Below, piece after piece: positions 7,105 through 61,024 of a stretch of 64,000 nucleotides of DNA. Below the pieces are notes generated by a model, which was not told where the DNA came from, searched no databases, and worked only from the letters and a program-made list of their open reading frames with translations. The stretch spans positions 189,265-253,264 of the forward strand of contig CAZBFO010000001.1 in NCBI GenBank assembly GCA_964491475.1. Reading direction: 5' to 3'. Position numbers and translations under genes: made by a program. Each line of letters begins with the position of its first letter. The stretch's first letter is position 1. This DNA is from an uncultured Gammaproteobacteria bacterium (GTDB taxonomy: Bacteria; Patescibacteriota; Patescibacteriia; SG8-24).

Positions 7105-7573
7105 TTATATAACTCTTGTGCGCGACAAACAAAAAGATCACACGGTACTCGTCTTCGGCACATTCGACCTGCTTCACCCAGGCCATCTTGCGTTTCTACG
7201 TGCGGCAGCAAAGTACGGCTCAGTGACGGCCATCATAACGCCCGATGCGAAAGTCAAAATAGAGAAAGGGAAAGCACCACACTTTTCTGAACAAGAGAGG
7301 ATGCTTATGGCCGCGGCCATTAAGTATGTCGACCATGTCGTTCTGGGAGACAATGGTACAAAATGGAATGTAGTACGCAATCTGGCGCCTGACGTTATTT
7401 GCGTTGGCCATGACCAGAACGCCAATCACCCAAAGTTCCTCGCGCAGTTGGCGCTGCTAAAAAAGCTTCCGAAAATTGTTCGGCTGCCCAGCCTTAAATC
7501 TTCGCGCTACTCATCCTCAAAAGTTAAGCTTGAAATACACAAAGCCAAACAAAACGAAGCAGCCGCTGATTAG
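7076..7573 (+). CDS. Cytidylyltransferase-like nucleotidyltransferase (RibL FAD synthase / TagD glycerol-3-phosphate cytidylyltransferase family)
   Basis: VLVFGTFDLLHPGHLAFL is the (H/T)xGH nucleotidyltransferase motif. ...VVLGDNG... and PDVICVGHDQ align with archaeal RibL. The gene is low GC and overlaps the upstream ORF by 29 nt, so the true start may be an internal or alternative codon. Confidence 0.55.
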   Translation: MNTRKPPKSSYITLVRDKQKDHTVLVFGTFDLLHPGHLAFLRAAAKYGSVTAIITPDAKVKIEKGKAPHFSEQERMLMAAAIKYVDHVVLGDNGTKWNVVRNLAPDVICVGHDQNANHPKFLAQLALLKKLPKIVRLPSLKSSRYSSSKVKLEIHKAKQNEAAAD

Positions 7574-7659
7574 TGCTCAGCTCCGAATCCATCGCAATGT
7601 GCTGAAACAGCCCATAACTTAATCAAAAACCGTCGCTTTTATGATGGTTTTGTTGCCGT

Positions 7660-7694
7660 TTGACATTGACGCGACAGCTAATTTTTGCTAATAC
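7660..7694 (+). promoter_or_regulatory. Putative sigma70-type promoter for the PLD endonuclease gene (TTGACA/TTGACG - 17 nt - TAATAC)
   Basis: Sequence tttgacattgacgcgacagctaatttttgctaatact lies about 70 nt upstream of the Met at 7766. Confidence 0.4.
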
Positions 7695-7765
7695 TTTGTA
7701 AGGCGCGCCCGTTGCATGCCCGCCGTGACGGACATCGTAAATCACAACGACAACACCTTCTCACA

Positions 7766-8959
7766 ATGCCTACACAAAAATTCATTTTCCAGGGCATTAC
7801 TTCGGAAACACACAAATCTGGTGTTGCATGGCTTTTGGCAACTGCAGATATCCAAAAAATCTTAATGAGCGTGGCCTTCATCAGCGAAGAAGGTGTGGCA
7901 CAGATTGAAAATGATTTGCGAAGCCACGCGACAAGTACCGAGTTTTTTGCAGGGATCCGTAATGAGATAACTTCTCGTCAAGCACTCGCCCGTCTCATTG
8001 GTTTAGGCGCGACTTTGTTTACGGTTGATACCGGTTCAAAGGGCACGCTTTTCCATCCAAAGTTATACTTTGCCAAAGGGCAAAATTTTGCGCGTCTCAT
8101 AGTGGGTAGCGCAAACCTGACTGCTGGTGGCCTCAACGATAATATTGAAGCCAGTATCGCCCTCGAGCTCGATCTTGCTCAAGCCAATGATTCTGCGCTC
8201 AGCGACGATGTCGAGCGGCTGTTGGGTGACATGGTATCCAATCATCCCAGTAACGTAAAAAGAATTTCTGCCGCCACCGAGCTTGATGTGCTACTGAACA
8301 ATGGCTTATTAATTGACGAAAGCCTCGCCGCGCCCCCTCGCGCGGCGACTAAAGGATCTAGCCCGTCGAGCGATATTGTTCCCCGGATTCAGCTGAGCAC
8401 CACCCGGCTGAACCGCATCGTCGCACGCGCACGCACCACTCCTCGACAGGTTCCCCAAGCCGCCAGGGCGGGCCGCTCAACCCAAGCCTCGCCACAAGCA
8501 TCTCCAGCTCCTTTGCTGACCGGGATTGAATTGGTATGGCAAAGCAAACCCCTGGAGGAAAGTGACCTAAACATCCCGAGCGGCAACAACACCCACCCCA
8601 AGGGCTCCATGAGCCTCGATCAGGGTACCCTAGACCCCTCGGTTGATTTCCGTCATTACTTCCGAAATACCGTTTTTCCGCAATTAACTTGGACGGTGAG
8701 TACACGCACCCCTGACGGAGAAGAGGCCAGCGCAAAGTGTGAGCTAATTGTAAAAGGGATTTCCTACGGAGTACATGAATTGACTATCAGTCACCACACA
8801 TCAACGACATCGACCACCTACAGGCAGCGAGGCCCGACGACCCGTCTTCGATGGGGCGCCATGAAAAGTCTTGTAGCCACTCCCGTTTTGCTTGGCCGAA
8901 CACTTTCACTTTACAAGAATACCGCAAGTTCAGACCGCTTTGTTATTGATATTGACTGA
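7766..8959 (+). CDS. PLD-family (HKD nuclease) restriction endonuclease, BfiI/NgoAVII-like
   Basis: HPKLYFAKGQNFARLIVGSANLTAGG carries the HxK...GSxN PLD motif. It is followed by a C-terminal domain of DNA-binding size. Its 3' end overlaps a convergent N6A MTase. The start is taken at the internal Met (MPTQKF) because the longer ORF begins inside the promoter. Confidence 0.6.
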   Translation: MPTQKFIFQGITSETHKSGVAWLLATADIQKILMSVAFISEEGVAQIENDLRSHATSTEFFAGIRNEITSRQALARLIGLGATLFTVDTGSKGTLFHPKLYFAKGQNFARLIVGSANLTAGGLNDNIEASIALELDLAQANDSALSDDVERLLGDMVSNHPSNVKRISAATELDVLLNNGLLIDESLAAPPRAATKGSSPSSDIVPRIQLSTTRLNRIVARARTTPRQVPQAARAGRSTQASPQASPAPLLTGIELVWQSKPLEESDLNIPSGNNTHPKGSMSLDQGTLDPSVDFRHYFRNTVFPQLTWTVSTRTPDGEEASAKCELIVKGISYGVHELTISHHTSTTSTTYRQRGPTTRLRWGAMKSLVATPVLLGRTLSLYKNTASSDRFVIDID

Positions 8960-10596
8960 GCGTTATTTTGCTCGGACGCGGTTCTTTGCCGTCGATTTCG
9001 GAGATTTATCCAATTTTCAAAAATCAACTCTCTTTCGGTTGCCGTCAAGCCCAAATCACCCAAGAGCTTGCGATCCTGCTTGCCCAGCACCGCCTCAGTG
9101 GACAAAGTTCGGACGTCATAATCGAGCTCCTTGATGTTAATCTTCACTCCCTTGGGCATGGGAATCAGCAGTCGCTCGATCTCGGACGGAACAAGTTCCA
9201 ATACACCTCCGCCGTAATGCCTACCCTCCAGCTCCGCACTTAACGAGGTGAGCGAATTTACGAAATTACCGACCAAGACATTCCCCGAAACGCTGTTTGG
9301 CTTAATTCTATATGCAGTGTCAGTGGTAAAAGCGTTTAGCTTGTTCACAATAAGCCTCGGAGTATTGCTCGAACGCTTAAGCATGCCAATCTCGGTTGCA
9401 TGCACAGAAGGAACGGAATACCAAGGCTTTCGAACGCTACACTTATAGCGAGTGTTCAGCTTTTGCCGTTCGCCAAACGCAATGTATTTTCTGGCGGCGG
9501 CATCCTTTGCTGCTGACTTATCAGGGAACCAGATGAAGTTTGTCGGGTAGCCCTTTTGAGCGTTCTCTGCGTGCTGCCGAGCGTCGTAAATAACCCCGGG
9601 GCAGTGCCCACTCCTCCCGAACATCGGGTGTGACCATTTCTCCAACCCATACTCTTGGACGGTATCATCATCCACCAGAAAAAAATCGTTCGCGCCGGTC
9701 ACGATGCCAACGTCGACTGCTGCAATATCAATGAATTGTTTTACGTATTCTTGGTTTGCCAGATCTGACAGAATCGACCGCATCTTTGACGCAAGGAGTG
9801 CGTAGGTCCACTTTCCCTTATTGACATCCGTGTTCATCAACTTTGGCGCGTTAAACACCTCAGAGGGATTCAACTTTAGAAACTCTTTTCCTTGCACAGG
9901 ATAAATGCCGACGCCTTCATTAAAGCCCTTGGGGCCGCGGCGTTTTTCAGCCATCAAGAGGACCGCACCCTGGAGCGTATTACCAAACCAGATTTCCTGA
10001 GGGTCAACGATTACGACTCTCCGACACTCTCGTCCAAGAAATGCTCGCAGCGAGCCAGCGTGGGCTACGTGGATTATTTCCGAAGGCACCACCATCGCCA
10101 AACGACCTCCAGGCCGAAGCATCGCAAGGGATGCTGCAATAAATGGCACCCACGCGTTCGTATGCTTAGTGAAGTCGAGGTTTAGGTGCGAAAAAATTTG
10201 CGCGGCACGTGCTTGGAATTTCTCTGGTAGATACTGATAGCGGATGAATGGCGGATTACCCAAAATGGCATCGAAGGTGGTGTTACCGCGCATTTCTTCG
10301 GTTGCCCAGCCGAGATAGTCACCCTGAACGATTCTTGCCTTCGGAAGAAGACCGCGTACTCGCCTCGCAGACTTCGCGGCCTCGTCTTCGTCCAGCTCAA
10401 GGCCGGTGACGGTGCTATTTGCAAATCCACCAACCTTCGCGAGTGCTTCAAAAAAAATTCCGTCCCCGCAACTAGGCTCGAGGATGTTTGCCGGCTTAAT
10501 TTCCTTCACCCAGCGGCTCAAAAAAACTGCCAAATCTAAGGAAGTGTAGTAGCCGCCCCTAAGCTTTTGTGCACTCTCATTAGCCCTAAAGTTCAT
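8911..10596 (-). CDS. N6-adenine-specific DNA methyltransferase (gamma class, Eco57I/TaqI-like) with a C-terminal target-recognition region
   Basis: ILEPSCGDGIFF is the SAM-binding FxGxG motif and AILGNPPFIRY is catalytic motif IV (NPPF). The gene is low GC and sits opposite the PLD nuclease. Confidence 0.8.
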   Translation of the reverse strand: MNFRANESAQKLRGGYYTSLDLAVFLSRWVKEIKPANILEPSCGDGIFFEALAKVGGFANSTVTGLELDEDEAAKSARRVRGLLPKARIVQGDYLGWATEEMRGNTTFDAILGNPPFIRYQYLPEKFQARAAQIFSHLNLDFTKHTNAWVPFIAASLAMLRPGGRLAMVVPSEIIHVAHAGSLRAFLGRECRRVVIVDPQEIWFGNTLQGAVLLMAEKRRGPKGFNEGVGIYPVQGKEFLKLNPSEVFNAPKLMNTDVNKGKWTYALLASKMRSILSDLANQEYVKQFIDIAAVDVGIVTGANDFFLVDDDTVQEYGLEKWSHPMFGRSGHCPGVIYDARQHAENAQKGYPTNFIWFPDKSAAKDAAARKYIAFGERQKLNTRYKCSVRKPWYSVPSVHATEIGMLKRSSNTPRLIVNKLNAFTTDTAYRIKPNSVSGNVLVGNFVNSLTSLSAELEGRHYGGGVLELVPSEIERLLIPMPKGVKINIKELDYDVRTLSTEAVLGKQDRKLLGDLGLTATERELIFENWINLRNRRQRTASEQNNAQSISITKRSELAVFL

Positions 10597-10697
10597 AGTA
10601 CCTACTTACGCACAATACACAGTGATGGTACTTGAACTGGGGCATATATCCCAGATAAGTTATACCCCCCCACACTCTAGTGCCGCTATTCCGCCCC

Positions 10698-17165: not shown

Positions 17166-18908
17166 CTACTTCTCGGCGGCCAAAGCGTCGAAAAGGCCGT
17201 CGAAGAACTTGGAGACGGATTTCCTGCCGCGCGCCTCCTTTGCGACCAAAAACTGAAAATGCGTTCGCTTGAGGTTGGTGTTGGCAATGTGGCGGCTGTG
17301 AAAGGTCTCGAGCATCTTCTTGCCGTCATAGAACTCGCGCCGGCGGCCATCCTTCTTTATCGAGGCCACTGCAACCTCGGCATTCTTTTGGAGTTTCGCG
17401 ACCTCCTCTGCCGAGAATTTCATCTGAAGCTCTGCAATGAAATCTCCGACCTGCTTCGCGAGCTCGGTGAGCGGCCGCTTCGGGCGGAAACCGTGAAAAC
17501 CGAGAGCCTTGTGGACCCGTCGCTCTATCTCATCCGCCTCCATCTCGTCGGAAATTTTGTCGAGCGCCGCGACAACGTCCTCCTTCGATTTCAGGTCTGT
17601 CTGCTCGACTACGACCTCAATTGCCCTCCAGATGGCGTCAGGATCAATGAGGAAGTTCTCGACCACGGACACAGGTAGGACAAACACGTCCTCGGGCACC
17701 TCTGGCGGAAAACCGACATCCTGATCGACCAAGGCGAAGACCTTGAGGCCACTGCTAAATCCGTCGAGCGCGCTCGAAAGACGCGATCTCAAGCTCATGC
17801 ATTCACTTTTTCCTCCACCAGGGATAACGGTGGCTCCGTCAAACCTTTGGCTAAGTGCACGGAAGAGTTTCCGCGCGCCGACGGCATTCTTCGCCTGCTC
17901 ATCACCCACGCCCTCTGCGATGATGACTGGCTGCATCGCGGTCAGATTGGAAGTACTGCCGAACAGCTCGCGCAAGACGGACAGACGCTCGTCATCGGCG
18001 GCAATCGGAATCAGCTGGTTTTCTCCGTCGGCCACCAGCTCGACTGGCCGCATCAGAAATAGCTCCTCAAAGGATGCATTCTCTACAATGGACGGGGAGT
18101 GGGTCGCAACAATCACCTGTGTATCCTCTTCGGCGGCAAGCACGCGGAGGTAGTCGAGCACTTTCATCTGCAAGTTCGGGTGCAGGTGTAACTCCGGTTC
18201 GTCTATGAGAACACACAAGTCGGTCTTGGCCTTGGGGGCGGAGCGACCATGAAGACCGTCGAGCGCCTCACGAACACGATGTTCGATCAGGGGATAGAAC
18301 ATCTGGATAATCGACTTCTCGCCAGAACTCAGGTCATCGAGGTCCACTTCAGTCGGCTTGCCGTGGACACGCCACACGCACCGAATGTTATCGCGATTCG
18401 ATGTGTCGATCTTCACGAACTCAAGGTGCGGCAATAGACTCTTCGTTAGAGCGCGAAACGGCTCCCAGACGTCGTCGATGGTGCCCTTGAGAATCTCTTG
18501 ATCTCGGTCGAATCGCGCCGTGATAGCTTCCTTCCTGCCAACGTCGATCTGGCAGAGCCCGTGCTTCAGGTAGTTGTATGCGTCATCAACGTTCCACGCG
18601 TCGCGGCTTCCACCCGCAAGAAGATTGATACCCTCGTAGCCCGATACCGATGTCTGTGTGAGGATTTCCTCCAGCTTGATGTCCTGACTTGCTAGGTGGC
18701 GTTGTTGCACTGTCTGCTTGCGCATGGCGCGAGCGGGGCCAACGTAGAGTACGCCGCTGGTGCGGCCGCCGGAGTTTCGGAGTTCGTTCAGGAGTGTGGA
18801 TTTGCCGCAGCCGTTCGGACCGGCGATGATCATCAGACTCGGGACAGCGACGCACTCGGCGAGCCGAACGGCCCGCTTATCGGTGATTTTGAATTCGGGA
18901 ATGCGCAT
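17166..18908 (-). CDS. OLD-family nuclease (ABC-type ATPase with a C-terminal Toprim domain), standalone class 1
   Basis: Walker A GPNGCGKST, signature-like LSSGEKS, Walker B LCVLIDEPELHLHP and H-loop ATHSP are present. The C-terminus carries VIIAEGVGDE...LVDQD Toprim acidic motifs. The start is taken at the internal Met (MRIPEF). No helicase or other partner gene is adjacent. Confidence 0.7.
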   Translation of the reverse strand: MRIPEFKITDKRAVRLAECVAVPSLMIIAGPNGCGKSTLLNELRNSGGRTSGVLYVGPARAMRKQTVQQRHLASQDIKLEEILTQTSVSGYEGINLLAGGSRDAWNVDDAYNYLKHGLCQIDVGRKEAITARFDRDQEILKGTIDDVWEPFRALTKSLLPHLEFVKIDTSNRDNIRCVWRVHGKPTEVDLDDLSSGEKSIIQMFYPLIEHRVREALDGLHGRSAPKAKTDLCVLIDEPELHLHPNLQMKVLDYLRVLAAEEDTQVIVATHSPSIVENASFEELFLMRPVELVADGENQLIPIAADDERLSVLRELFGSTSNLTAMQPVIIAEGVGDEQAKNAVGARKLFRALSQRFDGATVIPGGGKSECMSLRSRLSSALDGFSSGLKVFALVDQDVGFPPEVPEDVFVLPVSVVENFLIDPDAIWRAIEVVVEQTDLKSKEDVVAALDKISDEMEADEIERRVHKALGFHGFRPKRPLTELAKQVGDFIAELQMKFSAEEVAKLQKNAEVAVASIKKDGRRREFYDGKKMLETFHSRHIANTNLKRTHFQFLVAKEARGRKSVSKFFDGLFDALAAEK

Positions 18909-19081
18909 AATAAAAAGTGATATTGACTGGCCGATCTTAGCACTCGCAACGGTGAAGTGCCAAGAGCGTTTAGACCCAAGGTTCTTGAGCCGTGACCGGA
19001 GCATCAAGTACCGATCCAAACGGTTTTCCCATATCCACACCCCGTTGTTTTTCCCGCGCCCAAGTGTCAAAATAAGCTCAC

Positions 19082-44390: not shown

Positions 44391-46370
44391 TCAGCGGAGC
44401 AACACTTTGCCACCCTGGCCGTCGTCGGCCACGCGGCATATGCCAGTTACCGACCACTTGGCGAGGTCGAACCAATAGGCGCGGTTGCGGGAAGGCGACC
44501 AGACCCAGAGGTTGAAGCGCGTGACGGTCGGCGGAAGGTCGAGAACCAGCTCGGCCCCGTTACCGCCATAGCTTACGCGCGGCAGCGTTGCAGACGTCGG
44601 CGCCCAAGAAAGGCTACCGTCGCCGCCCGCAGCCACGAAGGCGAAGTCGGCATCGGTGAGCGCACCCGCATCCACGAGGGCGTGAGGAGAGACTCCCTTT
44701 ATGACCACGCGTAGCGAGCTCACGGTGACGGAACAGGCCAGGGTTGGAGCAGCAGATGAGGCATTTGCCGCGCCCTCAACCGCAGTTCCGCCATCGGTCA
44801 ACGACGGCACGACCGACTTCTGGCACTCGCCACTTACCGGATCGCAGGCATAGCCGTCATTGCAGGAACCGGTGCTCCAGAAGGTGCAGCCGTCCGGAGC
44901 CGTCGCGCATACTGCCGGCGATTGCGCGTTCATGCAGGCGTGCGTGCCCGCGATGCAAGTCATCGCGCATCCGCCCGGTTGTGACGGCGGCGGAATGCCG
45001 GAATCGGTCCCGCCTCCACGCGCTCCCCCGGAAGCCGAGGAAGAGATGATACGACTGCCGTTGGGACAGTTCGTAGCATCGGTGACCGTGAACTCGCGAT
45101 GCGCGGAATCCATCCGCCGCACCAACGAAGGCACCGAGCCATCCGGCACCTGAATAACCTGCGGCCAGCCGCGACCGTACAGCACCGGCATCAGGTTGCG
45201 ATACAGCCGATATGCCGTTCCGTCGTCGGAAATGACGTAGAAGTCGTCGTCCGAAGCCTGCTCGATGACTGAACCGTCGCGCAACGGCAATGGCGTCGTG
45301 TCCGGCGCGATGGCGCAGGAACGGCCGTTCACCAGCACGTCGGCTGCACGGAAGCCCCAGGAACGGAGCAAGATGGCGTACTCGTTCGCGGCCGGCGCGA
45401 ACGGCACTTTTCGCCGCCAGCGCATGACGCCGTCGTCGAAGGTGACGAAGGTCGGCCAGGCGGCACCGTCCAGACAGGTCGTGGCGGCTAGTTGCGCCGG
45501 CCTGTCGAGATCGAGTCCGCGGTCGTGGCAGGCCAGCTCGTCGTCGCTGACCGTCACCACGGTGTCCCACTCGCGGGAACGGTCCTGCCAGAACTGATAC
45601 GAGCGGTAGACCGTCTCGTCGCGGATGTGGCAGAGCCTGTCCGGCGCGCAGACCAGGTAAATCTCCGGTCCGTTTGCGCCTTTCACCAACGTGCCCACGG
45701 CATGATGCAGCGCGTGATGCGACAACTTTGCGCCCGCCGCCGCACCGAGACCGCTGTATCCCGAAATGGGCTCCGGCACGATGGCGCTGTCGCCGCAGAA
45801 TAGCTTGAAGTGCAGGTGAGCACCGTCGGTTTTGGGGTCGGCATGGCATGCCGAGATGACGTTGCCGAGGTTGCCGACCGTGCCGATCTGCTCGCCTTGC
45901 TGCACCCGTTGGCCGACCTTCACGGTCCGCGAGGCCAAGTGGCCGTAATGGCTGAAACAGCCGTTGCCGTGGTCGATGAACACCTGGTTTGGGCCGTAGG
46001 AACCGTCGAGCCGTTCGCGAGAGGCCGCGCTGCCAGGCAACGGATACTCGGCAATCGTTCCGGCCGCCGCCGCCAACGCCGGCGTGCCCCAGGCTGCGCC
46101 GCAGCCTTCACCGGCAAAATCGAGCGCGTAGCCGTCGTCCCACTCCCCCGCGCCGTGGCGGAGGTGCGTGGTCGGCGTCTGATACGAGCGCGTCAGCACT
46201 CGAGTCTCGCCGGCAGGAAAGGGCAGCATCAGCGCCATCGAGCGGTCGGCGGCGCTTTCCACCAACGCGTCCGAGCGGTCGCTTTCCGAGGGACTGCTTC
46301 CGGTGTCGCCGCTGCAAGAGGCGGCCAGGACGATGACGCACACGAGCAAGAAACGGATGAATGCGGACAT
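44391..46370 (-). CDS. M23 family peptidase lipoprotein with a large Cys-rich C-terminal region
   Basis: Lipobox LAASC. The M23 core carries HYGHL...GAHLHFKL. The C-terminal ~400 aa contain many Cys and Gly. Confidence 0.7.
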   Translation of the reverse strand: MSAFIRFLLVCVIVLAASCSGDTGSSPSESDRSDALVESAADRSMALMLPFPAGETRVLTRSYQTPTTHLRHGAGEWDDGYALDFAGEGCGAAWGTPALAAAAGTIAEYPLPGSAASRERLDGSYGPNQVFIDHGNGCFSHYGHLASRTVKVGQRVQQGEQIGTVGNLGNVISACHADPKTDGAHLHFKLFCGDSAIVPEPISGYSGLGAAAGAKLSHHALHHAVGTLVKGANGPEIYLVCAPDRLCHIRDETVYRSYQFWQDRSREWDTVVTVSDDELACHDRGLDLDRPAQLAATTCLDGAAWPTFVTFDDGVMRWRRKVPFAPAANEYAILLRSWGFRAADVLVNGRSCAIAPDTTPLPLRDGSVIEQASDDDFYVISDDGTAYRLYRNLMPVLYGRGWPQVIQVPDGSVPSLVRRMDSAHREFTVTDATNCPNGSRIISSSASGGARGGGTDSGIPPPSQPGGCAMTCIAGTHACMNAQSPAVCATAPDGCTFWSTGSCNDGYACDPVSGECQKSVVPSLTDGGTAVEGAANASSAAPTLACSVTVSSLRVVIKGVSPHALVDAGALTDADFAFVAAGGDGSLSWAPTSATLPRVSYGGNGAELVLDLPPTVTRFNLWVWSPSRNRAYWFDLAKWSVTGICRVADDGQGGKVLLR

Positions 46371-47297: not shown

Positions 47298-48263
47298 TCA
47301 GAAGGTCTTGTTGCCCTTGGGGATGTTCCCCAGGAAGCTGCCGCCGCTCGGAGCGGGCGGACCGCTGCCGATGATCTCGGCCAGCTCCTCTGGCGAGCAG
47401 TAGTAGATGCGGATCAGCGCCGTCGGCTGCTCCTGCCAGAACTCGATCGGCTGGGTGTCGTCGTGGACGGTCTGGTTGACCATCGCGCCGGCGCCGACTT
47501 CGACGCGCGGTGCCGCCGAACGGAGCGAGCGCATGCCGCCGCCACCGAGCGTCTTGGGCGCGGCGCTGAAGACGCTTTCCTCGTCGCCGGGCGTGCTCTC
47601 GAAGCCGCCGCGCATGCGGCGGGTCGGCCGGGGCTTCGGCTCCTTGGAGAGGAAGAATGCCAGGCTGAAAGCGTCGACGCGCTCGTTGCCGATGATCTGC
47701 GCCGCCACGCCGCGCTCCACTTGTTCCGTGAACAAGAATTCGCGGGTGACGCCGCCTTCGCCGCGGAACCCGTCGCGCCAGAACGAACGGCCGGGCGTGA
47801 CGTTGGAAGCCAGGTAGTTCTGGCCGGGCCACTCGAAGCCGCAGTCGGCGCAGTAGCGGTTGCCGCTGAACGGCTTGTCGTGGTTGGGGCAGCGTCGCTT
47901 GTACTGCTCCATCGAGAGCGGCCAGGTGACGCGCCGTCCGGTGATGGCGTTGACGCCCTGGGCCGAGATGATCGCGGCGACGTGGTGCGGATTGTGCAGG
48001 CTGTCGTTGAGGTCGATCCACACCATGTGGCCGACCTTGGAAGCGAAGAAGAAGCTGCGCAGGTTGATGCTCGGATCGCTGCGGTCCCAGTTCTTCGGAC
48101 ACGCCTCGAAGTCGTCGACGGAGTAGACGGTGACCGGCGCTTGCGGCGCCAGATTGCCTACCTGCTCGTTACCCCGGGCGTCGAATCGCGACGTGGTCGC
48201 CTTCGGCATGTGCAACGTAGCGCTCACGCCGTTGACGTTCATCTGGGTGGTTCCTCTGCTCAT
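47298..48263 (-). CDS. Hypothetical protein with a putative zinc-ribbon (CPNHD...CADCGF)
   Basis: Long ORF with coding composition. No family recognised. Confidence 0.4.
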   Translation of the reverse strand: MSRGTTQMNVNGVSATLHMPKATTSRFDARGNEQVGNLAPQAPVTVYSVDDFEACPKNWDRSDPSINLRSFFFASKVGHMVWIDLNDSLHNPHHVAAIISAQGVNAITGRRVTWPLSMEQYKRRCPNHDKPFSGNRYCADCGFEWPGQNYLASNVTPGRSFWRDGFRGEGGVTREFLFTEQVERGVAAQIIGNERVDAFSLAFFLSKEPKPRPTRRMRGGFESTPGDEESVFSAAPKTLGGGGMRSLRSAAPRVEVGAGAMVNQTVHDDTQPIEFWQEQPTALIRIYYCSPEELAEIIGSGPPAPSGGSFLGNIPKGNKTF

Positions 48264-48404
48264 TTCCTACCTCTTTTTGGTCTGTTTCACGACGAACGAC
48301 GGCCAACGTGGTCCGTCACTCGACGCCACAGAGTAACTGGTTTCGACCCGAAGGTCAAGGAGCCGGGCTTCTGCTATACTGACCGCGTTACCCCCTATTC
48401 TTTT

Positions 48405-49895
48405 ATGCGCAGACGCCACATTATCGCCGCAGCCTTAGCCTGCGGCTCGTTGCTCATCGCCGCCGGCGTCTTGGCCGCGACGACAACGGCCCACGACGGC
48501 ACCCTCATCAAGAGCAAATCGTCCGCTTCCGTCTACTACTACGGCGGCAACGGCAAGCGTTATGCCTTCCCCAACGAGCATACCTACTCCTCGTGGTACG
48601 ACGACTTCAGCGGCGTAGCCACCATCACCGATGCCGACCTGGCGGCCATCCCGCTCGGCGGCAACGTCACTTATAAACCGGGCGTCCGTCTGGTGAAGGT
48701 CCAGACCGACCCCAAGGTGTACGCGGTGGATGCCAACGGCACCCTGCGCCCCATAAAGGACGAGGCCGCGGCCAAGGCGCTTTACGGCGACGATTGGAAC
48801 AAGCGGATTGACGACATCCCCGACGCCTTCTTCACCAACTACGCCGTCGGCGCGGAAATCGACTCTGCCGACGACTTCAGCCCGGACGATGCCGAAACCG
48901 AAGCGGCCGACATCGCCACCGACCGGCACATCCCCAAGAACGAGGGCGGCATTCCCGGCAGCTCCGTCACCCTCGACCTGACCAAGCTCCCCCTCGGTGA
49001 CGGCAAATACACTTCGAACGGCGCCAAGAAAGGGTACGTCTATGTCTGCCAGACCGCCTTTAACGGCGGCGGCGCGCAGCAGAACGGCTCATGGATAAAC
49101 ACCTCCGCCAAAACCTGGGACGCTACAAAGAAAATCGCCGTCAAGGGGAGCGTCGATTGGCCGACCGCCGCATATTCGATGACGGTTTCCGGCAGCGACC
49201 GCAAGATCACCTCCAACGGCCTGCCCGTCGGCAGCAACACCGGCACCTTCCCCGTCGCCGCCTCCGACCCCGCCTACCAGATCGACCGCAACCCCAACAC
49301 CATCAAGGCCACTTCGATTTCGCTGACGCTGCCCGCCAACCCCACGCTCGGCACCACGGCCAAATGCGTCCGCGGCCAGGTCGGCATCGGCGTGAACGGC
49401 GTCCCCATCTTTGACGGCTTCGACGCCGAAGGCCGCGACGCCGTGGCCCACGAAGTGCAGGACTCCTGCGGCGGCCACCCGCAAGAATCCGGCAACTACC
49501 ACTACCACAGCGCCAGCGACTGCATCGTCAGCGGCGGCGCGAACAGTTCCAAGCTGCTCGGCTACGCTTACGACGGCTTCGGCATCTACGGCAGCAAGGA
49601 CGCCAGCGGCAAAACGCTGACCACCGCCGACCTCGACGAATGCCACGGCATCACCAGCCAGGTGCTGTGGGACGGCAAATCGGTGAGCATGTACCACTAC
49701 GTGGCCACCAGCGACTTCCCCTACACCGTCGGCTGCTTCAAGGGCTCGGTGAGCAAGGAGCCGACGCCCAGCGGAGCGCCGAGCGGCGGAACGACGCAGC
49801 AGGGCGGCGGATCAAGCACGATGCCTCCCCCACCGCCAGAGGACAGCCCGTTGCCGATGGGCCCGGGCAGCCTGATGATGGGCAGGCTGCACTAA
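48405..49895 (+). CDS. Secreted YHYH-domain protein
   Basis: Signal peptide (MRRRHIIAAALACGSLLIAAGVLA). YHYHSASDC...LLGYAYDGFGIYG matches the YHYH motif family. A Pro-rich C-terminal tail is present. Confidence 0.7.
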   Translation: MRRRHIIAAALACGSLLIAAGVLAATTTAHDGTLIKSKSSASVYYYGGNGKRYAFPNEHTYSSWYDDFSGVATITDADLAAIPLGGNVTYKPGVRLVKVQTDPKVYAVDANGTLRPIKDEAAAKALYGDDWNKRIDDIPDAFFTNYAVGAEIDSADDFSPDDAETEAADIATDRHIPKNEGGIPGSSVTLDLTKLPLGDGKYTSNGAKKGYVYVCQTAFNGGGAQQNGSWINTSAKTWDATKKIAVKGSVDWPTAAYSMTVSGSDRKITSNGLPVGSNTGTFPVAASDPAYQIDRNPNTIKATSISLTLPANPTLGTTAKCVRGQVGIGVNGVPIFDGFDAEGRDAVAHEVQDSCGGHPQESGNYHYHSASDCIVSGGANSSKLLGYAYDGFGIYGSKDASGKTLTTADLDECHGITSQVLWDGKSVSMYHYVATSDFPYTVGCFKGSVSKEPTPSGAPSGGTTQQGGGSSTMPPPPPEDSPLPMGPGSLMMGRLH

Positions 49896-50922: not shown

Positions 50923-51273
50923 TCAGACAAGTTCAATCTGGACCATCTCGGCGCCATCGCCTTCGCGGCGAACGAGGTTAGTGATGCGGGTGTATCCGCC
51001 GGCGCGATCCTTGTAGCGGGGGCCAAGCTCTTCGATGACCTTCTTGGCAGCGTTCTCGCTGTAGAAGAACGAGGAGAGCTTGCGGCGTCCGACCAGTCCG
51101 CCGGCCTTGCCGGTAGTGATGGCGCGCTCGACGAGCGGGCACACCGCCTTGGCCTTGGCGCGGGTGGTCTTCACTTTTTCGAACAGGACGATGCTCGTCG
51201 CGAGGTTCCTAAGCAAGGCTTCGCGCGGGCCCTTCTTCCGATCGAGGATTTTTCCTGAATTTCGGTGGCGCAT
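50923..51273 (-). CDS. rplQ: 50S ribosomal protein L17
   Basis: MRHRNSGKILDRKKGPREALLRNLATSIVLFEKVKTT. Confidence 0.85.
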   Translation of the reverse strand: MRHRNSGKILDRKKGPREALLRNLATSIVLFEKVKTTRAKAKAVCPLVERAITTGKAGGLVGRRKLSSFFYSENAAKKVIEELGPRYKDRAGGYTRITNLVRREGDGAEMVQIELV

Positions 51274-51320: not shown

Positions 51321-52154
51321 TTACTTCTTAGCCTTCTTGGCGGCCTTCTTGGCCTTCTTGGGCTTTTCTTCGGACTCGCCTTCCTGCATCGGAGCTTCTT
51401 CCATTTCGGCCGGTGCTTCCGAGGAGGCCATCTCGGCTGCCGGCGCTTCGGTGACCGCGGCCTCCATGCCCATGGCGGCGACGAGGTTGAAGTGGTCGAG
51501 AATGATCTTGACCGACTGGTCGACCGCCTCGCGAGGAGTGATCGTGCCGTCCGTCTCGATGTTCATGAGGAGCTTGTCGAAGTTGGTGATCTGCCCGACG
51601 CGGACGTTCTCCACCTTGTAGCCCACTTCGCGAATAGGCGAATAAACGGCGTCGATGGCGATCATGCCCAGCTCCGGCTTCTCCTTGGAGCGCTCTTCGA
51701 CCGTGACGTAGCCGCGGCCGCGACCCACGAAGATCTCCATCTCGAACTCTGCCTTCTTGTCGGTGAGCGTCGCGATGTGGAGGTCGGGGTTGACCACCTC
51801 GACGTCGGCGTTGGCCTCGATGTCGGCGGCGGTAACGTTCTTCTCGCCCTTGGCCTTCAAGGTCAGGCGGACCGGCTCGTCGGAGAAGAGGCGGAAGCGC
51901 AGCGACTTGAGGTTCAGGATGAGCTCGAGCATGTCTTCCTGCACGCCCGGAATGGCGGAGAACTCATGCGAGGCACCCTTGATTTTGACGGCGGTGACGG
52001 CCGCGCCCGGAAGGGACGACAGCATGACACGGCGCATGGCGTTACCGAGCGTGGTTCCGTAGCCGTGCCAGCAGGGCTCCACGACGAGCGTGGCCTTGCG
52101 TGCATCTTCGCCGGGAATAAGCTCGATTTTCGACGGAAGCAAGATTTCTTCCAT
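51321..52154 (-). CDS. rpoA: DNA-directed RNA polymerase alpha subunit, N-terminal domain only; C-terminal domain replaced by an acidic/Lys-rich tail
   Basis: The alpha-NTD (GYGTTLGNAMRRVMLSSLPGAAVTAVKI) is present. After about residue 230 only low-complexity ...EAPMQEGESEEKPKKAKKAAKKAKK follows. Confidence 0.85.
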   Translation of the reverse strand: MEEILLPSKIELIPGEDARKATLVVEPCWHGYGTTLGNAMRRVMLSSLPGAAVTAVKIKGASHEFSAIPGVQEDMLELILNLKSLRFRLFSDEPVRLTLKAKGEKNVTAADIEANADVEVVNPDLHIATLTDKKAEFEMEIFVGRGRGYVTVEERSKEKPELGMIAIDAVYSPIREVGYKVENVRVGQITNFDKLLMNIETDGTITPREAVDQSVKIILDHFNLVAAMGMEAAVTEAPAAEMASSEAPAEMEEAPMQEGESEEKPKKAKKAAKKAKK

Positions 52155-54006: not shown

Positions 54007-54255
54007 TCAGAAGCGGTAGACGATTCTACCCTTAGTCAAATCGTACGGAGTCATCTCCAGTTTGACCTCGTCGCCGGGAAGGAGACGAATGCGGTTCATT
54101 CGCATCTTTCCGGAGAGATGTCCCAGAATGGTCTGGCCACCCTCGAGACGGATCTTGAACGTTGCTGCAGGAAGACATTCTTCGACGACACCGTTCATTT
54201 CGATGAACCCTTTGGACACCGATTGCGCGTTGTCGTTAGAGGTGTTTCCTGCCAT
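54007..54255 (-). CDS. infA: Translation initiation factor IF-1
   Basis: [65 protein letters not shown]. The start is taken at the internal Met. Confidence 0.85.
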
Positions 54256-54494
54256 AACGCCTTGAAGTGTACCGTGGACGATAAAAAATCGCAAGCCTAG
54301 GGCCTACGACTCTGCGGGACTTTTCCACAAAGCGTTGCCATTGTAGCAGTCCCTGTTTATCTGTCAAGGATTTTGGGGTGATAATTAAATCAGCCTTATT
54401 TTGACCTTTTCAACTCCTGCCTTTTGTACATTTTTAAGGCTAAAAAGTGCAAAAAATATGTCGTTTTTTTGGCTAAAATTAGCCATTTTTACTC

Positions 54495-54523
54495 TTGACA
54501 AAAAGGGCGTTTTGTGCTATACT
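54495..54523 (+). promoter_or_regulatory. Consensus sigma70 promoter (TTGACA - 17 nt - TATACT) upstream of the small repeat protein gene
   Basis: cTTGACAaaaagggcgttttgtgcTATACTcg. A GGAGG Shine-Dalgarno lies 6 nt upstream of the ATG at 54577. Confidence 0.55.
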
Positions 54524-54576
54524 CGTCTTAGGTCAGTAACGAAGCATACAACCAAGTCACACATTCGGAGGAATAC

Positions 54577-54918
54577 ATGCTCATTGCCATCGCCATCGCG
54601 TTCTGCCTCTGCCTGGTCGTCACGCTTGCGTTCGTTCCCGTGATGATGAACTCCGGCCAAATCAGCCGAGAGGAAGAGGTCAAGGAGGTCATCTACAACA
54701 AGACCCTGACCTTCAAGAACAAGATCATCATCGACGCCGAGTTCGAAGACTGCCTGGACAACCTCCCGGTCGTCCAACAGCCCTCGTCCGGCATCGTGCG
54801 CATCATGTCATCGTACGACCTGGACAACTTCCCGGTCGTTTACAAGCCTTCGTCCGGCACGGTACGCGTGTCGGCCTACAGCCCGCCCAGCGCTCGCAAG
54901 GTCAACCTCTTCGTCTGA
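54577..54918 (+). CDS. Small membrane-anchored protein with an internal ~19-aa tandem repeat
   Basis: N-terminal TM segment (LIAIAIAFCLCLVVTLAFVPVMM). The repeat units are DNLPVVQQPSSGIVRIMSSYDL and DNFPVVYKPSSGTVRVSAYSP. Confidence 0.45.
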   Translation: MLIAIAIAFCLCLVVTLAFVPVMMNSGQISREEEVKEVIYNKTLTFKNKIIIDAEFEDCLDNLPVVQQPSSGIVRIMSSYDLDNFPVVYKPSSGTVRVSAYSPPSARKVNLFV

Positions 54919-54948
54919 AACGGACAACTCTCGCCAGGGAGCAAAAAA

Positions 54949-55134
54949 ATGAAGAACGAAAACGTTCACACCGCAGAGACCGTTCGTCCGCCCGCCGGCT
55001 ACCCCAACGACATGCCGACCATGCGGCCGGAAGCGCCCTTCGTCGAGTTCGGCGAAGTACAGCTCGAGAAGCCCGAGCCCACCCTGGCCGAGCAGTCGGC
55101 CGCCCAGCTCAAGCGCCTCGAACAGCGCAAGTAA
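54949..55134 (+). CDS. Small hypothetical protein (61 aa)
   Basis: Short ORF followed by the hairpin aaacggcctcccacttggtgaggccgtttt. Confidence 0.3.
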   Translation: MKNENVHTAETVRPPAGYPNDMPTMRPEAPFVEFGEVQLEKPEPTLAEQSAAQLKRLEQRK

Positions 55135-55280
55135 CCTCTCTCAAAACGGCCTCCCACTTGGTGAGGCCGTTTTACGTTGCGGCTTTTTTGCCGCCCATGC
55201 TAGGGTGGAATATCTTCGCTTCGTGCGAAGGCGTTCTTTTTTGCGCCGGCCAGCAAGGGCCAACCAAGGAGATCTGGGTC

Positions 55281-56012
55281 ATGCATGATATCTGTCACGA
55301 TATCAATATCGCGGAAATCCGACTTTCCGATGAACAACAGTTCCAAAAGCACGTGTCCAAGGACAAGATCAGCTTCAACTGGGAGTCGATACCGGCGGTA
55401 GGATTCGCGGGCCTGATACTTTCCATCGCGCTGTTCGTGCTCGCGAAGTGCTTCTGGGAAGCGCAGATCGACATCCTCCTCACCCTGATCACGGGCGGCG
55501 GTGTCGGCACGGCGCTCGGCATCTTGAATGAACGTCGCAGGCTCAAGCTGATTCCCGACGAGGAAAAACGATGGCATGCCGACTACGTCGCGGTTTGCGA
55601 CGACATCGAACGGTTCAGCGAACGCCTGGAGGCTTTTCGGAAACTGGCCAAGACGATCGAACGGACGCACGAGATCGATGCAACGCTCACCGACAGGTAC
55701 TTGGCGGAACGCAATGAGCTGGCCCGTCGACTCCGCGTGTTCCTCCGTGTCCTGGCGCTCAAGCACTACGAAGCGGTGGTCGCCAAGAACACCGACGGTC
55801 GCTTCCGCGATACCCGCGACGTGAGCGAACAGGTGTTCGCCAATCGCGTACGCGTGGCCGAGGGTGAAGCGGAAATCGAGAAGCTCCTGGCCAAGGACCG
55901 CTCGCCGAACGAGGCGGAGTTCCGAAGGCTGGAGGCGCAAAGCGGCGGCGACGCCGAGCGCGAAGACGAACCGGTCGCATCGGTGCGCACGTTGCGGGCC
56001 CACGGCGACTAG
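55281..56012 (+). CDS. Two-TM membrane protein, paralog 1 of a tandem three-gene family (unknown function)
   Basis: AAGGAG Shine-Dalgarno. 2-TM hairpin, then RRRLKLIPDEEKRWHADYV...ERLEAFRKL...GRFRDTRDVSEQVFANRVRVAEGE. A terminator follows at 56019-56055. Confidence 0.55.
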   Translation: MHDICHDINIAEIRLSDEQQFQKHVSKDKISFNWESIPAVGFAGLILSIALFVLAKCFWEAQIDILLTLITGGGVGTALGILNERRRLKLIPDEEKRWHADYVAVCDDIERFSERLEAFRKLAKTIERTHEIDATLTDRYLAERNELARRLRVFLRVLALKHYEAVVAKNTDGRFRDTRDVSEQVFANRVRVAEGEAEIEKLLAKDRSPNEAEFRRLEAQSGGDAEREDEPVASVRTLRAHGD

Positions 56013-56175
56013 GCGACGAGAAGATGCGTAAGGACCTCTCTACTACGACGGTCCTTTTTTATTTTCTCACTATCAAACGGGCGCTTGCCGCTGATTGACT
56101 CCCCCGCCGTTCTGGGCTAGGTTGGAAATCCTGTAGCGTTTCGACGCAACGGGAGCACAGATACGGAGCAATAAG

Positions 56176-56901
56176 ATGCAGTCTACGTACAGGGAAAGCG
56201 CCGTGACGGTCGGAGAAATCGAACCGTTCGCGAGGAACGACGGTGAACGCGTCGAACGATGGCAGCAGACGCAGCGCTCGATGAACGCCATCGAGGAGTG
56301 CCGGCCGGTACGGGTGAGCGACTGGTTCTGGGAATGCAGCAGTCTGGGCGTGTTCCTGACGGCGCTGACCGTTCTTATCTCGCTTCCAGCTGCCGTTCTC
56401 CTGGATGTGAGCCTGAAGCCCAGTGCCATGCAGTGGCTCATCATCGGTGGCGCCGCGCTTGCATTCCTGCTGACGGCTAACGTCCTCCTCTCTCGCCGGC
56501 ACTGTCGCCGAAAGCGGCTTGCCGCCTTGAAGGAGATCGCTCCCGAAGAGCTCGCCTGGCATCACCGAACGGTCGAGATCAACGATCTGCTGGGGAAGTT
56601 CGACAGCCGCCTCGAAGCGCTGAAGGACTATGACGCGAACGCGGAGAAGGGTTACGGCGTCAGCCCCTCGGATGCCGCCAGATGCGCAACCGAGCGCGCG
56701 GTTTTGGATGCCCGAAGGCGCGCCCTCGGACGCGAGGAAGCCATCAGAAAACTGAAGGCGTCGGGCTACTACGGCATGGTCGAACTGTTCGCCGAAAAAG
56801 AAGTGGAAGAGAGGAAGCGCGTTGACACGCGGCTCATCGACCACGGCGTGGACGGGACGGACTTCACCGTCGCCGATTACCGGAACAGATGGCAGGGATG
56901 A
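56176..56901 (+). CDS. Two-TM membrane protein, paralog 2
   Basis: 2-TM hairpin, then RRKRLAALKEIAPEELAWHHRTV...FDSRLEALKDYDANAEKG. A terminator follows at 56905-56940. Confidence 0.55.
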   Translation: MQSTYRESAVTVGEIEPFARNDGERVERWQQTQRSMNAIEECRPVRVSDWFWECSSLGVFLTALTVLISLPAAVLLDVSLKPSAMQWLIIGGAALAFLLTANVLLSRRHCRRKRLAALKEIAPEELAWHHRTVEINDLLGKFDSRLEALKDYDANAEKGYGVSPSDAARCATERAVLDARRRALGREEAIRKLKASGYYGMVELFAEKEVEERKRVDTRLIDHGVDGTDFTVADYRNRWQG

Positions 56902-57026
56902 CGAAACCCCCGCGGCTCTTGCCGACGGGGGTATTTTTTTGCGTGAGCGGGGCGGGACGGTCAGCGTTGACCCAGCGGCACAAAACTGCTACGTTCGGAC
57001 AGCCAGAAGCAAGGAGTCCTTTTTCA

Positions 57027-57787
57027 TGGCGACGAACATCATGGCTGTCAGGCGATTCATCTTGGACCGGTACGTCAACGAGTACGGGGCCAAAGACTTT
57101 CGCTGGTTTGAGGAACGGCGAGAAAAGTGGCTTAAGGAGAGCCAAGAAGCGAACATCAAGCAGGTGGACGGTTACGAAACGGCGTCCATCGCCCGGCTGG
57201 TGGCGGCGATAATCGGCGGTTTCGTCTTGCTCCTGGCCGGGGCGGCAGGCACCGCCACGCACCTGCTGCCCATGGTCGCGTATGCTGCGGCGCTCATCTG
57301 CATGCTGCTGTGCACGCTGCGCATCAGCCGCCTGCGAAGCTCGGAACGCCGCAGGATCGCCGCCATTCCGGCGCCGCGCCGCGAGTGGCACGAGCGGCTG
57401 GTAGCGCTCATGGCCAGGGTCGAGGCGTTCAATTCGCGTCTGCACGCCTTCCAGCTGTATGCCGCCAACGCGGAGTCGGGCCAGGAGGTCGACCCTGCGG
57501 TGGTCGAAAAGTACGCCGCGGAACGGCAGGAGCTCGTCAACCTCGAGTGCAAGCTGATGCGCGACCATGCGACCATGGAGTTCGACGCTGCCAACGCCGA
57601 AGACGGCGGCAGCTTCCGCGAAACGCGCGACCTCTCCGACGCCATCTTCATGAACAAGGTGCGTTACGCGGCGGAAGACGGGCAGCCGGCCGGTTCGGTC
57701 ACCGAACTCCCTCCCGACGAACGCTTCCGAGCCTTCGACGAGGCGGCGGATCGGGAATCTGCATCCACGAAAAACCACGCGGGCTGA
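57027..57787 (+). CDS. Two-TM membrane protein, paralog 3
   Basis: AAGGAG Shine-Dalgarno. 2-TM hairpin, then ERRRIAAIPAPRREWHERLV...FNSRLHAFQLYAANAESG...SFRETRDLSDAIFMNKVRYAAEDG. A terminator follows at 57803-57835. Confidence 0.55.
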
Positions 57788-57857
57788 AATGCCCGAAAAC
57801 GAAAGACCCCCGCGCTTGCGGAGGTCCTTTTTTATCGTCTTTATTTATCGTCGTCCT

Positions 57858-60225: not shown

Positions 60226-60921
60226 TTACTTGCACTTTCCGGTCATGTCGCCCAGGCAGCGGTAGTTGGCCTCGCTGCCGTTGAAGAACATCTTGTAGTG
60301 GGGGCGGTAGCGTTTGACCACGGCCTCGATCTGGGCCTTGATGCGCGGGCCGTCGCAGGCGCCGCTGGGCTTGATCTCGCCCTTGAGCCAGACTTCGGTG
60401 TTGACGCCGTCGGTGCTCTGAATCTTGTCGACTTGCAGCTTGCCATTGGCGAGGGAGTTGTACAAAGGGGTGTGCGTGCCGCTGCCGTGCAGGCCGAAGA
60501 GGGTCAGCAGCGCGTCATGGACGATGCTGTCCGTGGCGGCTGCCTTGTGTTCCGACACGAAGGCGATCTTGTCGTTGCAGCCGAAGGTCTCTTCCGCGAC
60601 CTTGGCGTCGGCAGGCGCGGTCGTGTTTTCCGTGAGAACGAATGGCACGGGAATGTCGTCATTTGCCATGTCCACCTGTTCGTTTTGCTGCGCCTTTTCC
60701 ACGGCGGCGACCTCCTTGGCCTTTTGCAGCGCTTCGAGCGAGGTCTTTGCCGGCATCAGCACGTCGCTGCCGACCTGATTGCCGACCTTCATGGCAGTCT
60801 GCCCGGCATCCGTGACCGACTGCGTCACCGACTGAAAACAGCCGGCTCCAAGCAGGATGAGGCCGATGGGAACGGCGAAGGCCGCGATGACGGTCGAGGT
60901 TTTCAGACGCTGTTCGGGCAT
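60226..60921 (-). CDS. Putative lipoprotein of unknown function
   Basis: Signal peptide with lipobox (LILLGAGC). The start is taken at MPEQRLK. Confidence 0.45.
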   Translation of the reverse strand: MPEQRLKTSTVIAAFAVPIGLILLGAGCFQSVTQSVTDAGQTAMKVGNQVGSDVLMPAKTSLEALQKAKEVAAVEKAQQNEQVDMANDDIPVPFVLTENTTAPADAKVAEETFGCNDKIAFVSEHKAAATDSIVHDALLTLFGLHGSGTHTPLYNSLANGKLQVDKIQSTDGVNTEVWLKGEIKPSGACDGPRIKAQIEAVVKRYRPHYKMFFNGSEANYRCLGDMTGKCK

Positions 60922-61024
60922 AGGAAAGACGAAATTTGTACCTGCAAACAATAGCGAGAACGGCCGTTCTTCGCAAGAAGCGCCAGGCAAAGAAAAACCG
61001 CCTCTGATAAAGGCGGAAAAGGGT

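Follow-up and report, generated by a model that had tools for sequence, protein, structure and literature searches.

A fast-evolving orphan family of predicted two-transmembrane proteins encoded between infA and alaS in Patescibacteria

Introduction

The Patescibacteria, or Candidate Phyla Radiation (CPR), have tiny genomes in which a large share of the genes is without assigned function, and many of these specify membrane proteins to which an attached or symbiotic way of life has been ascribed (PMC6744442). Among 106 protein families enriched in the CPR, 76 were found to have at least one transmembrane (TM) helix (Meheust et al. 2019, PMC6744442). Here we describe a much narrower family with TM helices, represented by three neighbouring genes, A, B and C, in a stretch of 64,000 nucleotides from contig CAZBFO010000001.1 (assembly GCA_964491475.1, positions 189,265 to 253,264), which is called the window below. 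The three genes lie between infA and alaS and are preceded by two small open reading frames (ORFs), s1 and s2. An earlier note, made from the letters of the window alone, had described a strong promoter, a small repeat protein (s1) and three tandem paralogues with two TM segments each, and had offered dosage amplification, an envelope sensor, an immunity-like function or a membrane scaffold as explanations. We find that the three genes belong to a hitherto undescribed orphan family that evolves fast and is arrayed at the same core-genome position in related genomes. We then weigh what its members may do and tentatively prefer a role as scaffold or adaptor on the cytoplasmic side of the membrane.

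Results

Pairwise BLASTP with composition adjustment aligned A with C at E=2e-18 (37% identity over 103 residues), B with C at 1e-8 and A with B at 2e-6, the mutual identities of the three proteins ranging from 24 to 37%. When an HMMER profile of A, B and C was run against 1.84 billion representative proteins (clustered at 50% identity), 21 matches were recovered at E<=1e-3, 19 of them at E<=1e-10; all 21 are 215-278 residues long and could be aligned nearly end to end. A hidden Markov model (HMM) of the whole family scores A at 2.7e-74, B at 2.1e-43 and C at 1.5e-71, values that are partly circular as A, B and C were in its alignment. Membership is supported independently by the pairwise BLASTP, the external search, the alignment and the fixed segment lengths described below. 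That the likeness of A, B and C might be compositional only is ruled out by the composition-adjusted BLASTP and the 21-member external family, and the neighbouring genes are true paralogues, as the earlier note had proposed. Other searches added little: a word-index protein search returned the query itself or one to three known members only, a first profile scan of genome contigs and two scans of metagenome contigs found nothing, and two alignments built for a DNA-pattern search were too divergent to yield patterns.

The family has a common plan. A short conserved N-terminal peptide is followed by two hydrophobic helices and a basic stretch, after which come (I)PxxExxWH, FNxRLxAL, an 8-residue tip loop (NAEPGxxVDP or xERPGPDV) and KYxAERxxL. 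The C-terminal part comprises DGxFRxTRDVSDxVFxNRVR in most members and then an acidic tail, often with SPxExxFxxLE. In B and in P0013 (P numbers denote family proteins from the profile search) the TRDVSD part is replaced by SGYYGMVE...DGTDFxVAxxxNRWxG. Two details of the earlier description need amendment: only half of the second shared motif, FxSRLxA...ANAExG, is retained in A, and the coordinates given for A and B are right whereas C starts at 57026, not 57027.

Two TM segments are found in each of A, B and C. Across 27 members, the loop between them is 3-21 residues long, carries a net charge of about -0.3 and is not conserved, while the 15 residues after the second segment carry about +2.6 with about four Lys or Arg; on average the juxtamembrane stretch has a net charge of +2.9 and the tail one of -4.3. 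By the positive-inside rule, the short loop and the basic C-terminal flank point to an N-in/C-in topology. The family is thus predicted to expose only a few residues outside the cell and to keep nearly all of each protein in the cytoplasm, which agrees with the hairpin with cytoplasmic ends suggested earlier.

AlphaFold2 (AF2) models of A (predicted local distance difference test, pLDDT, 83; predicted TM-score, pTM, 0.65) and C (pLDDT 78, pTM 0.60) agree with each other. In both, a short N-terminal helix is confidently placed (pLDDT 88-93) and is followed by the TM hairpin; two long helices then run antiparallel to each other (pLDDT >90), and one or two more precede a helix at the C-terminus. 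Segment lengths are near-invariant in the 27 members: a 33-residue helix, the tip loop of 8, a return helix of 36, a 10-residue loop bearing DGxFRxTRD and a 16-residue helix. The most conserved residues, in C numbering, are F135 and L170 together with R138 and E166/R167. To judge from the helix boundaries rather than from coordinates, F135 would face L170, and R138 would face E166, in the antiparallel hairpin; because of these facing positions the best-conserved residues appear to have a structural role. The family shows no evident catalytic or metal-binding motif.

This architecture invites comparison with membrane-remodelling or envelope-stress proteins of the PspA/Vipp1/ESCRT-III kind, or with mycobacterial PspM; by that analogy the helical hairpin of the family, with its acidic tail, would form polymers, or bring in a polymer, at the membrane's inner face. 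The layout is similar, with an antiparallel helical hairpin, shorter helices and an acidic C-terminal amphipathic motif, and one member matches the NCBIfam model PspM_Rv2743c at E=0.0048. Nevertheless, none of 22 aligned members matches PspA_IM30 or Snf7 at E<=1 among the Pfam families listed, no significant structural match to the alpha1-alpha5 fold of PspA/Vipp1/ESCRT-III was obtained, and the anchor of the family is a TM hairpin rather than an amphipathic helix. The hairpin helices of PspA and ESCRT-III are also longer than the 33 and 36 residues seen here. We consider such a role improbable. A second analogy is with intramembrane-sensing kinases, which share the two-TM hairpin and the very short outside loop; the conserved W-H pair and the Arg-rich loop near the membrane would suit a signal transducer that senses envelope or other stress in this way. 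However, the outside loop is not conserved, Pfam and NCBIfam revealed no kinase, HAMP, GGDEF, anti-sigma or DNA-binding domain, and no regulator gene is linked, so that we hold intramembrane sensing to be decidedly improbable. The classical envelope sensor of the earlier note is unlikely as well, given the size of the outside loop and the lack of a recognisable output domain. Both analogies are drawn from general shape.

Homology searches against known families gave no function, in keeping with the earlier note. For the five window proteins, Pfam, NCBIfam, PADLOC and PHROG produced nothing at or near curated thresholds (all PHROG matches at E>=0.03). All 22 aligned members were negative in Pfam, PADLOC and NCBIfam, where no family was matched by more than three of the 22, and SLATT_1-6 were absent among the Pfam matches listed for them. 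Over the window proteins and the 22 members together, the best Pfam-A and NCBIfam matches had 12-18 bits against cut-offs of 21-150 bits. A sequence profile search of the PDB gave a best E of 0.12 (bL9), judged to be chance, and Foldseek returned generic helical matches from the PDB (best E 1.0) and BFVD (best E 0.32). The SepX/GlpR model NF050099 was reached by one member, over the TM region, at 12.2 bits (E=0.13) against a cut-off of 150 bits. Phage_holin_3_6 was matched by one member at E=0.0079, in the TM region only. Class II holins are of about 65-95 residues and lie in lysis cassettes, whereas the family proteins have 215-278 residues and no phage gene or endolysin lies nearby. A phage or prophage origin was rejected, there being no PHROG or BFVD match and the flanks being core genes.

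Related loci (L004-L016) were recovered, and at 8 of the 11 sites the family occupies the infA-alaS position; the other three sites hold solitary copies elsewhere. The order, with infA pointing left, one to four family genes pointing right and alaS pointing left, recurs in L004, L005, L007, L008, L010-L012 and the pair L013 and L016, and the neighbours in these eight loci are infA, rpmJ, rpsM, rpsK, alaS and mnmA. Copy number differs between genomes. There is one copy in L008/L009; one full and one truncated 168-residue copy in L007; A' and B', followed directly by alaS without C, in L004, the window's close relative (alanyl-tRNA synthetase, AlaRS, 92% identical); and four copies in L010-L012. 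L016 and L013, from the same sample, have two copies after infA and, before alaS, one full and one truncated copy. In the truncated copies (L007 2168-2674, L013 962-1468) the TRDVSD helix and the tail are missing, while N-terminus, TM hairpin and FNxRL hairpin are retained. They are the final family gene ahead of alaS in both genomes, and a promoter-like site with 11/12 matches (TTGACA-17-TATATT) goes with each.

The only genome of the GTDB species set that was matched is the metagenome-assembled genome nzgw370 (JAHFIV01), which is also the one related genome typed taxonomically: an entry in the supplement to PMC12455944 assigns it to Patescibacteria, ABY1, SG8-24, genus JAHFIV01, at about 1.1 Mb. 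Within the reach of an exhaustive search, the family occurs only in one small patescibacterial clade with kinship to ABY1/SG8-24. On contig 2 of nzgw370, rpoA-rpsD-rpsK-rpsM-rpmJ-infA lie on one strand and are followed by at least three family genes on the opposite strand, up to the contig end; a fourth copy is solitary, near smc and rpsP. Another solitary copy, in L014, adjoins a tetratricopeptide repeat (TPR) protein. In L015 (1-2391) a gene for a PilB-like type II/IV secretion ATPase (T2SSE 1e-123) is followed directly, in the same orientation, by the solitary P0012, on whose other side lie tsaE and tsaD.

In a neighbour-joining (NJ) tree, A groups with the first family gene of L004 and P0003, B with P0013 and P0007, and C with P0004 and P0005. 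The identities run the same way: A is 63-65% identical to the L004 gene and 59% to P0003, B 42-49% to P0013 depending on the aligned stretch, and C 42% to P0004 and 36% to P0005. Since A, B and C each have their nearest relatives in other genomes rather than beside them in the window, the duplications predate the divergence of the genomes. The P0015/P0014 and P0016/P0017/P0010 subfamilies are common to nzgw370 and the L010 genome, at different array positions. Judged from these comparisons, the gene order of the subfamilies is not fixed and the duplications are old. A recent local triplication within this genome, for dosage or variant diversification, was the explanation that the earlier note had drawn from the tandem arrangement, and the adjacency of A, B and C on one strand and their mutual identity would fit it. 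The tree contradicts it, however, and the DNA similarity between the copies amounts only to short motif stretches of 16-28 nt; we regard a recent triplication as extremely improbable.

In its neighbourhood the family ranks with the fastest-diverging genes. When L010 is compared with nzgw370, the flanking proteins retain 91-98% identity (S13 94%, infA 95%, L17 98%, RpoA 91%) and 82% DNA identity reaches right up to infA, whereas the family genes are 25-37% identical with no detectable DNA similarity. Three local controls for the same pair, a 206-residue protein without a Pfam match (69%), a polysaccharide-synthesis protein (89%) and another hypothetical (28%), show that the family is not the sole fast one. 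Between the window and L004, rough Nei-Gojobori (NG86) estimates of nonsynonymous (dN) and synonymous (dS) divergence, which are near saturation, gave dN 0.047 and dS 0.33 for AlaRS, dN 0.27 and dS 1.31 for A (63% amino acid identity), and dN 0.50 with saturated dS for B (46%). As the dS of A and B lies above that of alaS, deeper coalescence or exchange relative to the flank is hinted at.

Such divergence at a fixed locus raises the alternative that the family belongs to a conflict system, in phage exclusion or abortive infection, or to a symbiont-host interface, with two-TM effectors or decoys diversifying in an arms race. On this view both the changing copy number and the extreme divergence would be accounted for. 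The fall in identity from flank to array, a dS of A and B at least 4-fold above that of the adjacent alaS in the same genome pair, a copy number of 1-4, truncated copies and shuffled subfamily order all fit, as do faint, non-significant echoes of two-TM defence effectors, each in one member (PADLOC SAVED_TM 0.016, CARF_TM 0.034 and '2TM Effector' 0.33), and of a SLATT-annotated BFVD protein (E=1.2). Yet none of the 22 members has a significant PADLOC or Pfam match, and PHROG was negative for the window proteins. In the recovered loci no partner gene, whether for a sensor, a nuclease, a cyclase or anything else, is a constant neighbour, and no nucleotide-signal generator or sensor (SMODS, SLOG, SAVED, CARF) was found among the neighbours. 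The site is embedded in syntenic core translation genes and the family found there is always the same, which sets it apart from a defence island, and no mobile context supports this explanation. The 28% identity of the hypothetical noted above means that fast divergence is not unique to the family, and the NG86 estimates of dS are rough and near saturation. On balance we think a conflict or interface role unlikely. Its more specific form, in which the infA-alaS array would be a hypervariable, lineage-specific conflict locus of ultra-small Patescibacteria that encodes a novel class of two-TM proteins set in the membrane, with cytoplasmic helical domains diversifying in an arms race with phages or a host cell, and with alleles or paralogues exchanged between related genomes faster than the flanking core genes diverge, seems to us less likely still.

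The features of the region are collected in Table 1. A, B and C each form their own transcription unit: each has an (A)AGGAG or GGAG Shine-Dalgarno (SD) sequence and is followed by a GC-rich hairpin and U-run; the separate SD sequences and terminators had been stated in the earlier note. The arrangement is general, since the family genes of the window and nine other loci all have a terminator and most have their own TTGACx-N16-18-TAnnnT site, and a hairpin with a T-run lies 3' of each family gene in every locus recovered. The strong promoter seen by the earlier note, which lies in an intergenic region where two divergent promoter-like sites separate infA from s1, was confirmed, with 53 nt between its -10 element and the s1 ATG. 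Its reach is s1-s2 only, because a strong terminator sits between s2 and A, and the paralogues have weaker promoter-like sites (8/12) of their own. Only a weak hairpin (-5.9 kcal/mol) separates s1 from s2, and the two are probably co-transcribed. A second T-run hairpin (55213-55242, + strand, -15.2 kcal/mol) lies 3' of the weak promoter-like site for A, within the would-be leader of A, where it may back up the s1-s2 terminator or attenuate A.

The description of s1 as a small membrane-anchored repeat protein was borne out: it has a single N-terminal hydrophobic segment (residues 2-20, hydropathy 3.07) and a 49-nt internal repeat, whose copies at 54753-54801 and 54819-54867 are 82% identical, spaced 66 nt apart, and correspond to the repeat in the protein. 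The GC content at its third codon positions (GC3) is 0.88. Neither s1 nor s2 has a counterpart in any related locus recovered, which removes them from a conserved unit with the paralogues, and both are singletons in a collection of 15 billion proteins.

Table 1. Coordinates of the genes and signals in the infA-alaS region of the window
Feature	Position	Strand	Observations
infA	54007-54294	-	ORF call; eIF-1a Pfam match at the same place
Promoter-like TTGACA-16-TACAAT	54340-54367	-	faces infA; 11/12 matches, TG extension
Near-consensus sigma-70-type promoter TTGACA-17-TATACT, s1-s2 unit	54495-54523	+	11/12 matches, TG extension
s1, 113-aa ORFan	54577-54918	+	SD GGAGG; N-terminal hydrophobic anchor; 22-aa internal repeat
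s2, 61-aa soluble Pro/Glu-rich ORFan	54949-55134	+	called as a gene in the Logan assembly too
Intrinsic terminator ending the s1-s2 unit	55143-55173	+	-21.1 kcal/mol, z -4.06, then UUUU
Promoter-like TTGCCG-17-TATCTT, for A, weak	55188-55216	+	8/12, consensus match only
Paralogue A, 243 aa, A-type subfamily	55281-56012	+	SD AAGGAG; TM 39-55, 65-81
Intrinsic terminator after A	56030-56056	+	-21.3 kcal/mol, z -5.3, then UUUUUUAUUUU
Promoter-like TTGACT-17-TAGGTT, for B	56095-56123	+	8/12 matches
Paralogue B, 241 aa, B-type subfamily	56176-56901	+	TM 59-75, 88-104
Intrinsic terminator after B	56906-56932	+	-23.5 kcal/mol, z -4.4, then seven U
Promoter-like TTGACC-17-TACGTT, for C	56967-56995	+	8/12 matches
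Paralogue C, 253 aa, C-type subfamily	57026-57787	+	SD AAGGAG; TM 58-74, 80-96
U-run hairpin between convergent C and alaS	57805-57826	.	-16.5 kcal/mol, z -2.35
alaS	57858 to about 59795	-	convergent with C; ends 32 nt from the hairpin after C

Several observations were made elsewhere in the window. AlaRS is short, at about 645 residues; in relatives it has 598-638 residues, and tRNA-synt_2c and tRNA_SAD are the only domains listed for it there. It seems to be without the usual C-terminal extension. Just downstream of alaS, a 254-residue protein without a Pfam match (60226-60990, -) is conserved in L007, L008 and L010/L011 (41-48% identity), where it takes the same or a nearby position; it is a second lineage-restricted protein without a known family in the neighbourhood. 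RpoA has 269-288 residues in the window (51321-52154, -), L005, L008, L010 and L016, with RNA_pol_L and RNA_pol_A_bac only, and no alpha C-terminal domain is among the Pfam matches listed for the window or its relatives; rplQ (L17) lies at 50926-51273. A stretch at 6000-10600 stands out by its low GC content (0.45-0.53, compared with about 0.62 elsewhere). It encodes a type IIG restriction-modification methyltransferase of the Eco57I kind (8911-10596, -; M_Eco57I_C 3e-82), together with two ORFs without a Pfam match (5986-7104 and 7685-8959), and is probably a horizontally acquired restriction-modification island. A 634-residue AAA_15/AAA_21 ATPase (17166-19070, -), with family names of the AbiEii/OLD kind, is a possible defence gene. 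Two further proteins are probably secreted or located in the envelope, one of 659 residues with an M23 peptidase domain (44391-46370, -) and one of 810 residues with a YHYH domain (47463-49895, +). Rfam matched no family at gathering score in the whole 64 kb, tRNAs, ribosomal-protein leaders and riboswitches included.

Discussion

We tentatively favour, at somewhat less than even confidence, a role without enzymatic activity, as a scaffold or adaptor anchored in the membrane on its cytoplasmic side, with subfamilies that would be specialised or co-assembling subunits. Each protein would enter the membrane through its hairpin of two helices, leaving both termini in the cytoplasm, where it would present the N-terminal peptide or helix, the basic juxtamembrane stretch and a compact all-alpha domain, ending in the acidic tail with its SPxExxFxxLE-like motif. 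The subfamilies may then act as specialised subunits or partner-specific variants, possibly in hetero-oligomers. Several points weigh against this proposal. There is no direct evidence for a partner, an oligomer or a localisation, and 'scaffold' is the default for a helical, motif-poor protein, since the fold matches are generic helical ones. Moreover, the family diverges very fast beside neighbours that are highly conserved, the dS of A and B exceeds that of the flanking alaS in the same genome pair, and solitary copies occur in unrelated contexts too. Diversifying selection or frequent exchange would fit the high dS and the fast divergence at least as well. If the scaffold proposal is true, the family points to a lineage-specific organisation of the membrane; if the proteins act in conflict instead, it would add a novel module for defence or interaction to organisms in which few such modules are known.

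Among described systems, EzrA, SepX/GlpR and LemA-type proteins resemble the family in having a membrane anchor and a poorly conserved all-alpha cytoplasmic domain, but the anchor here is two TM helices rather than one, and the 12 bits obtained with SepX_GlpR_2 lie far under its cut-off. PspA/Vipp1/ESCRT-III proteins share the helical hairpin, the shorter helices and the acidic C-terminal motif at the cytoplasmic face; the family differs from them in being integral to the membrane through its TM hairpin, in its shorter hairpin helices and in having no Pfam match, and its structural scores are indistinguishable from those of generic helical proteins. SLATT/S-2TM-beta, SAVED-TM and CARF-TM effectors, of cyclic oligonucleotide-based anti-phage signalling systems (CBASS) and type III CRISPR, are alike in the N-in/C-in two-TM hairpin with a helical cytoplasmic part, in fast evolution, in variable copy number and in the faint one-member echoes from PADLOC and BFVD. 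In contrast to these effectors, the family has no significant match, nucleotide-sensor domain or linked cyclase or Cas gene, and it sits in translation-gene synteny.

The variable lipoprotein families of Mycoplasma are surface lipoproteins with phase-variable promoters. Their arrays are comparable in that a small genome carries tandem, individually promoted, fast-diverging paralogues at one locus; the proteins described here, however, are predicted to be almost wholly cytoplasmic, and neither a lipobox nor a phase-variation repeat was seen. The families enriched in the CPR (PMC6744442) are alike in lineage restriction, poor annotation and TM helices, although the present family is far narrower, with 21 representatives in 1.84e9 proteins. 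As unannotated TM-containing families are common in the CPR (PMC6744442), the finding is tidy rather than exceptional. Beside them the family stands as a well-defined example, with one to four independently transcribed copies at the same core-genome position and a well-predicted structure.

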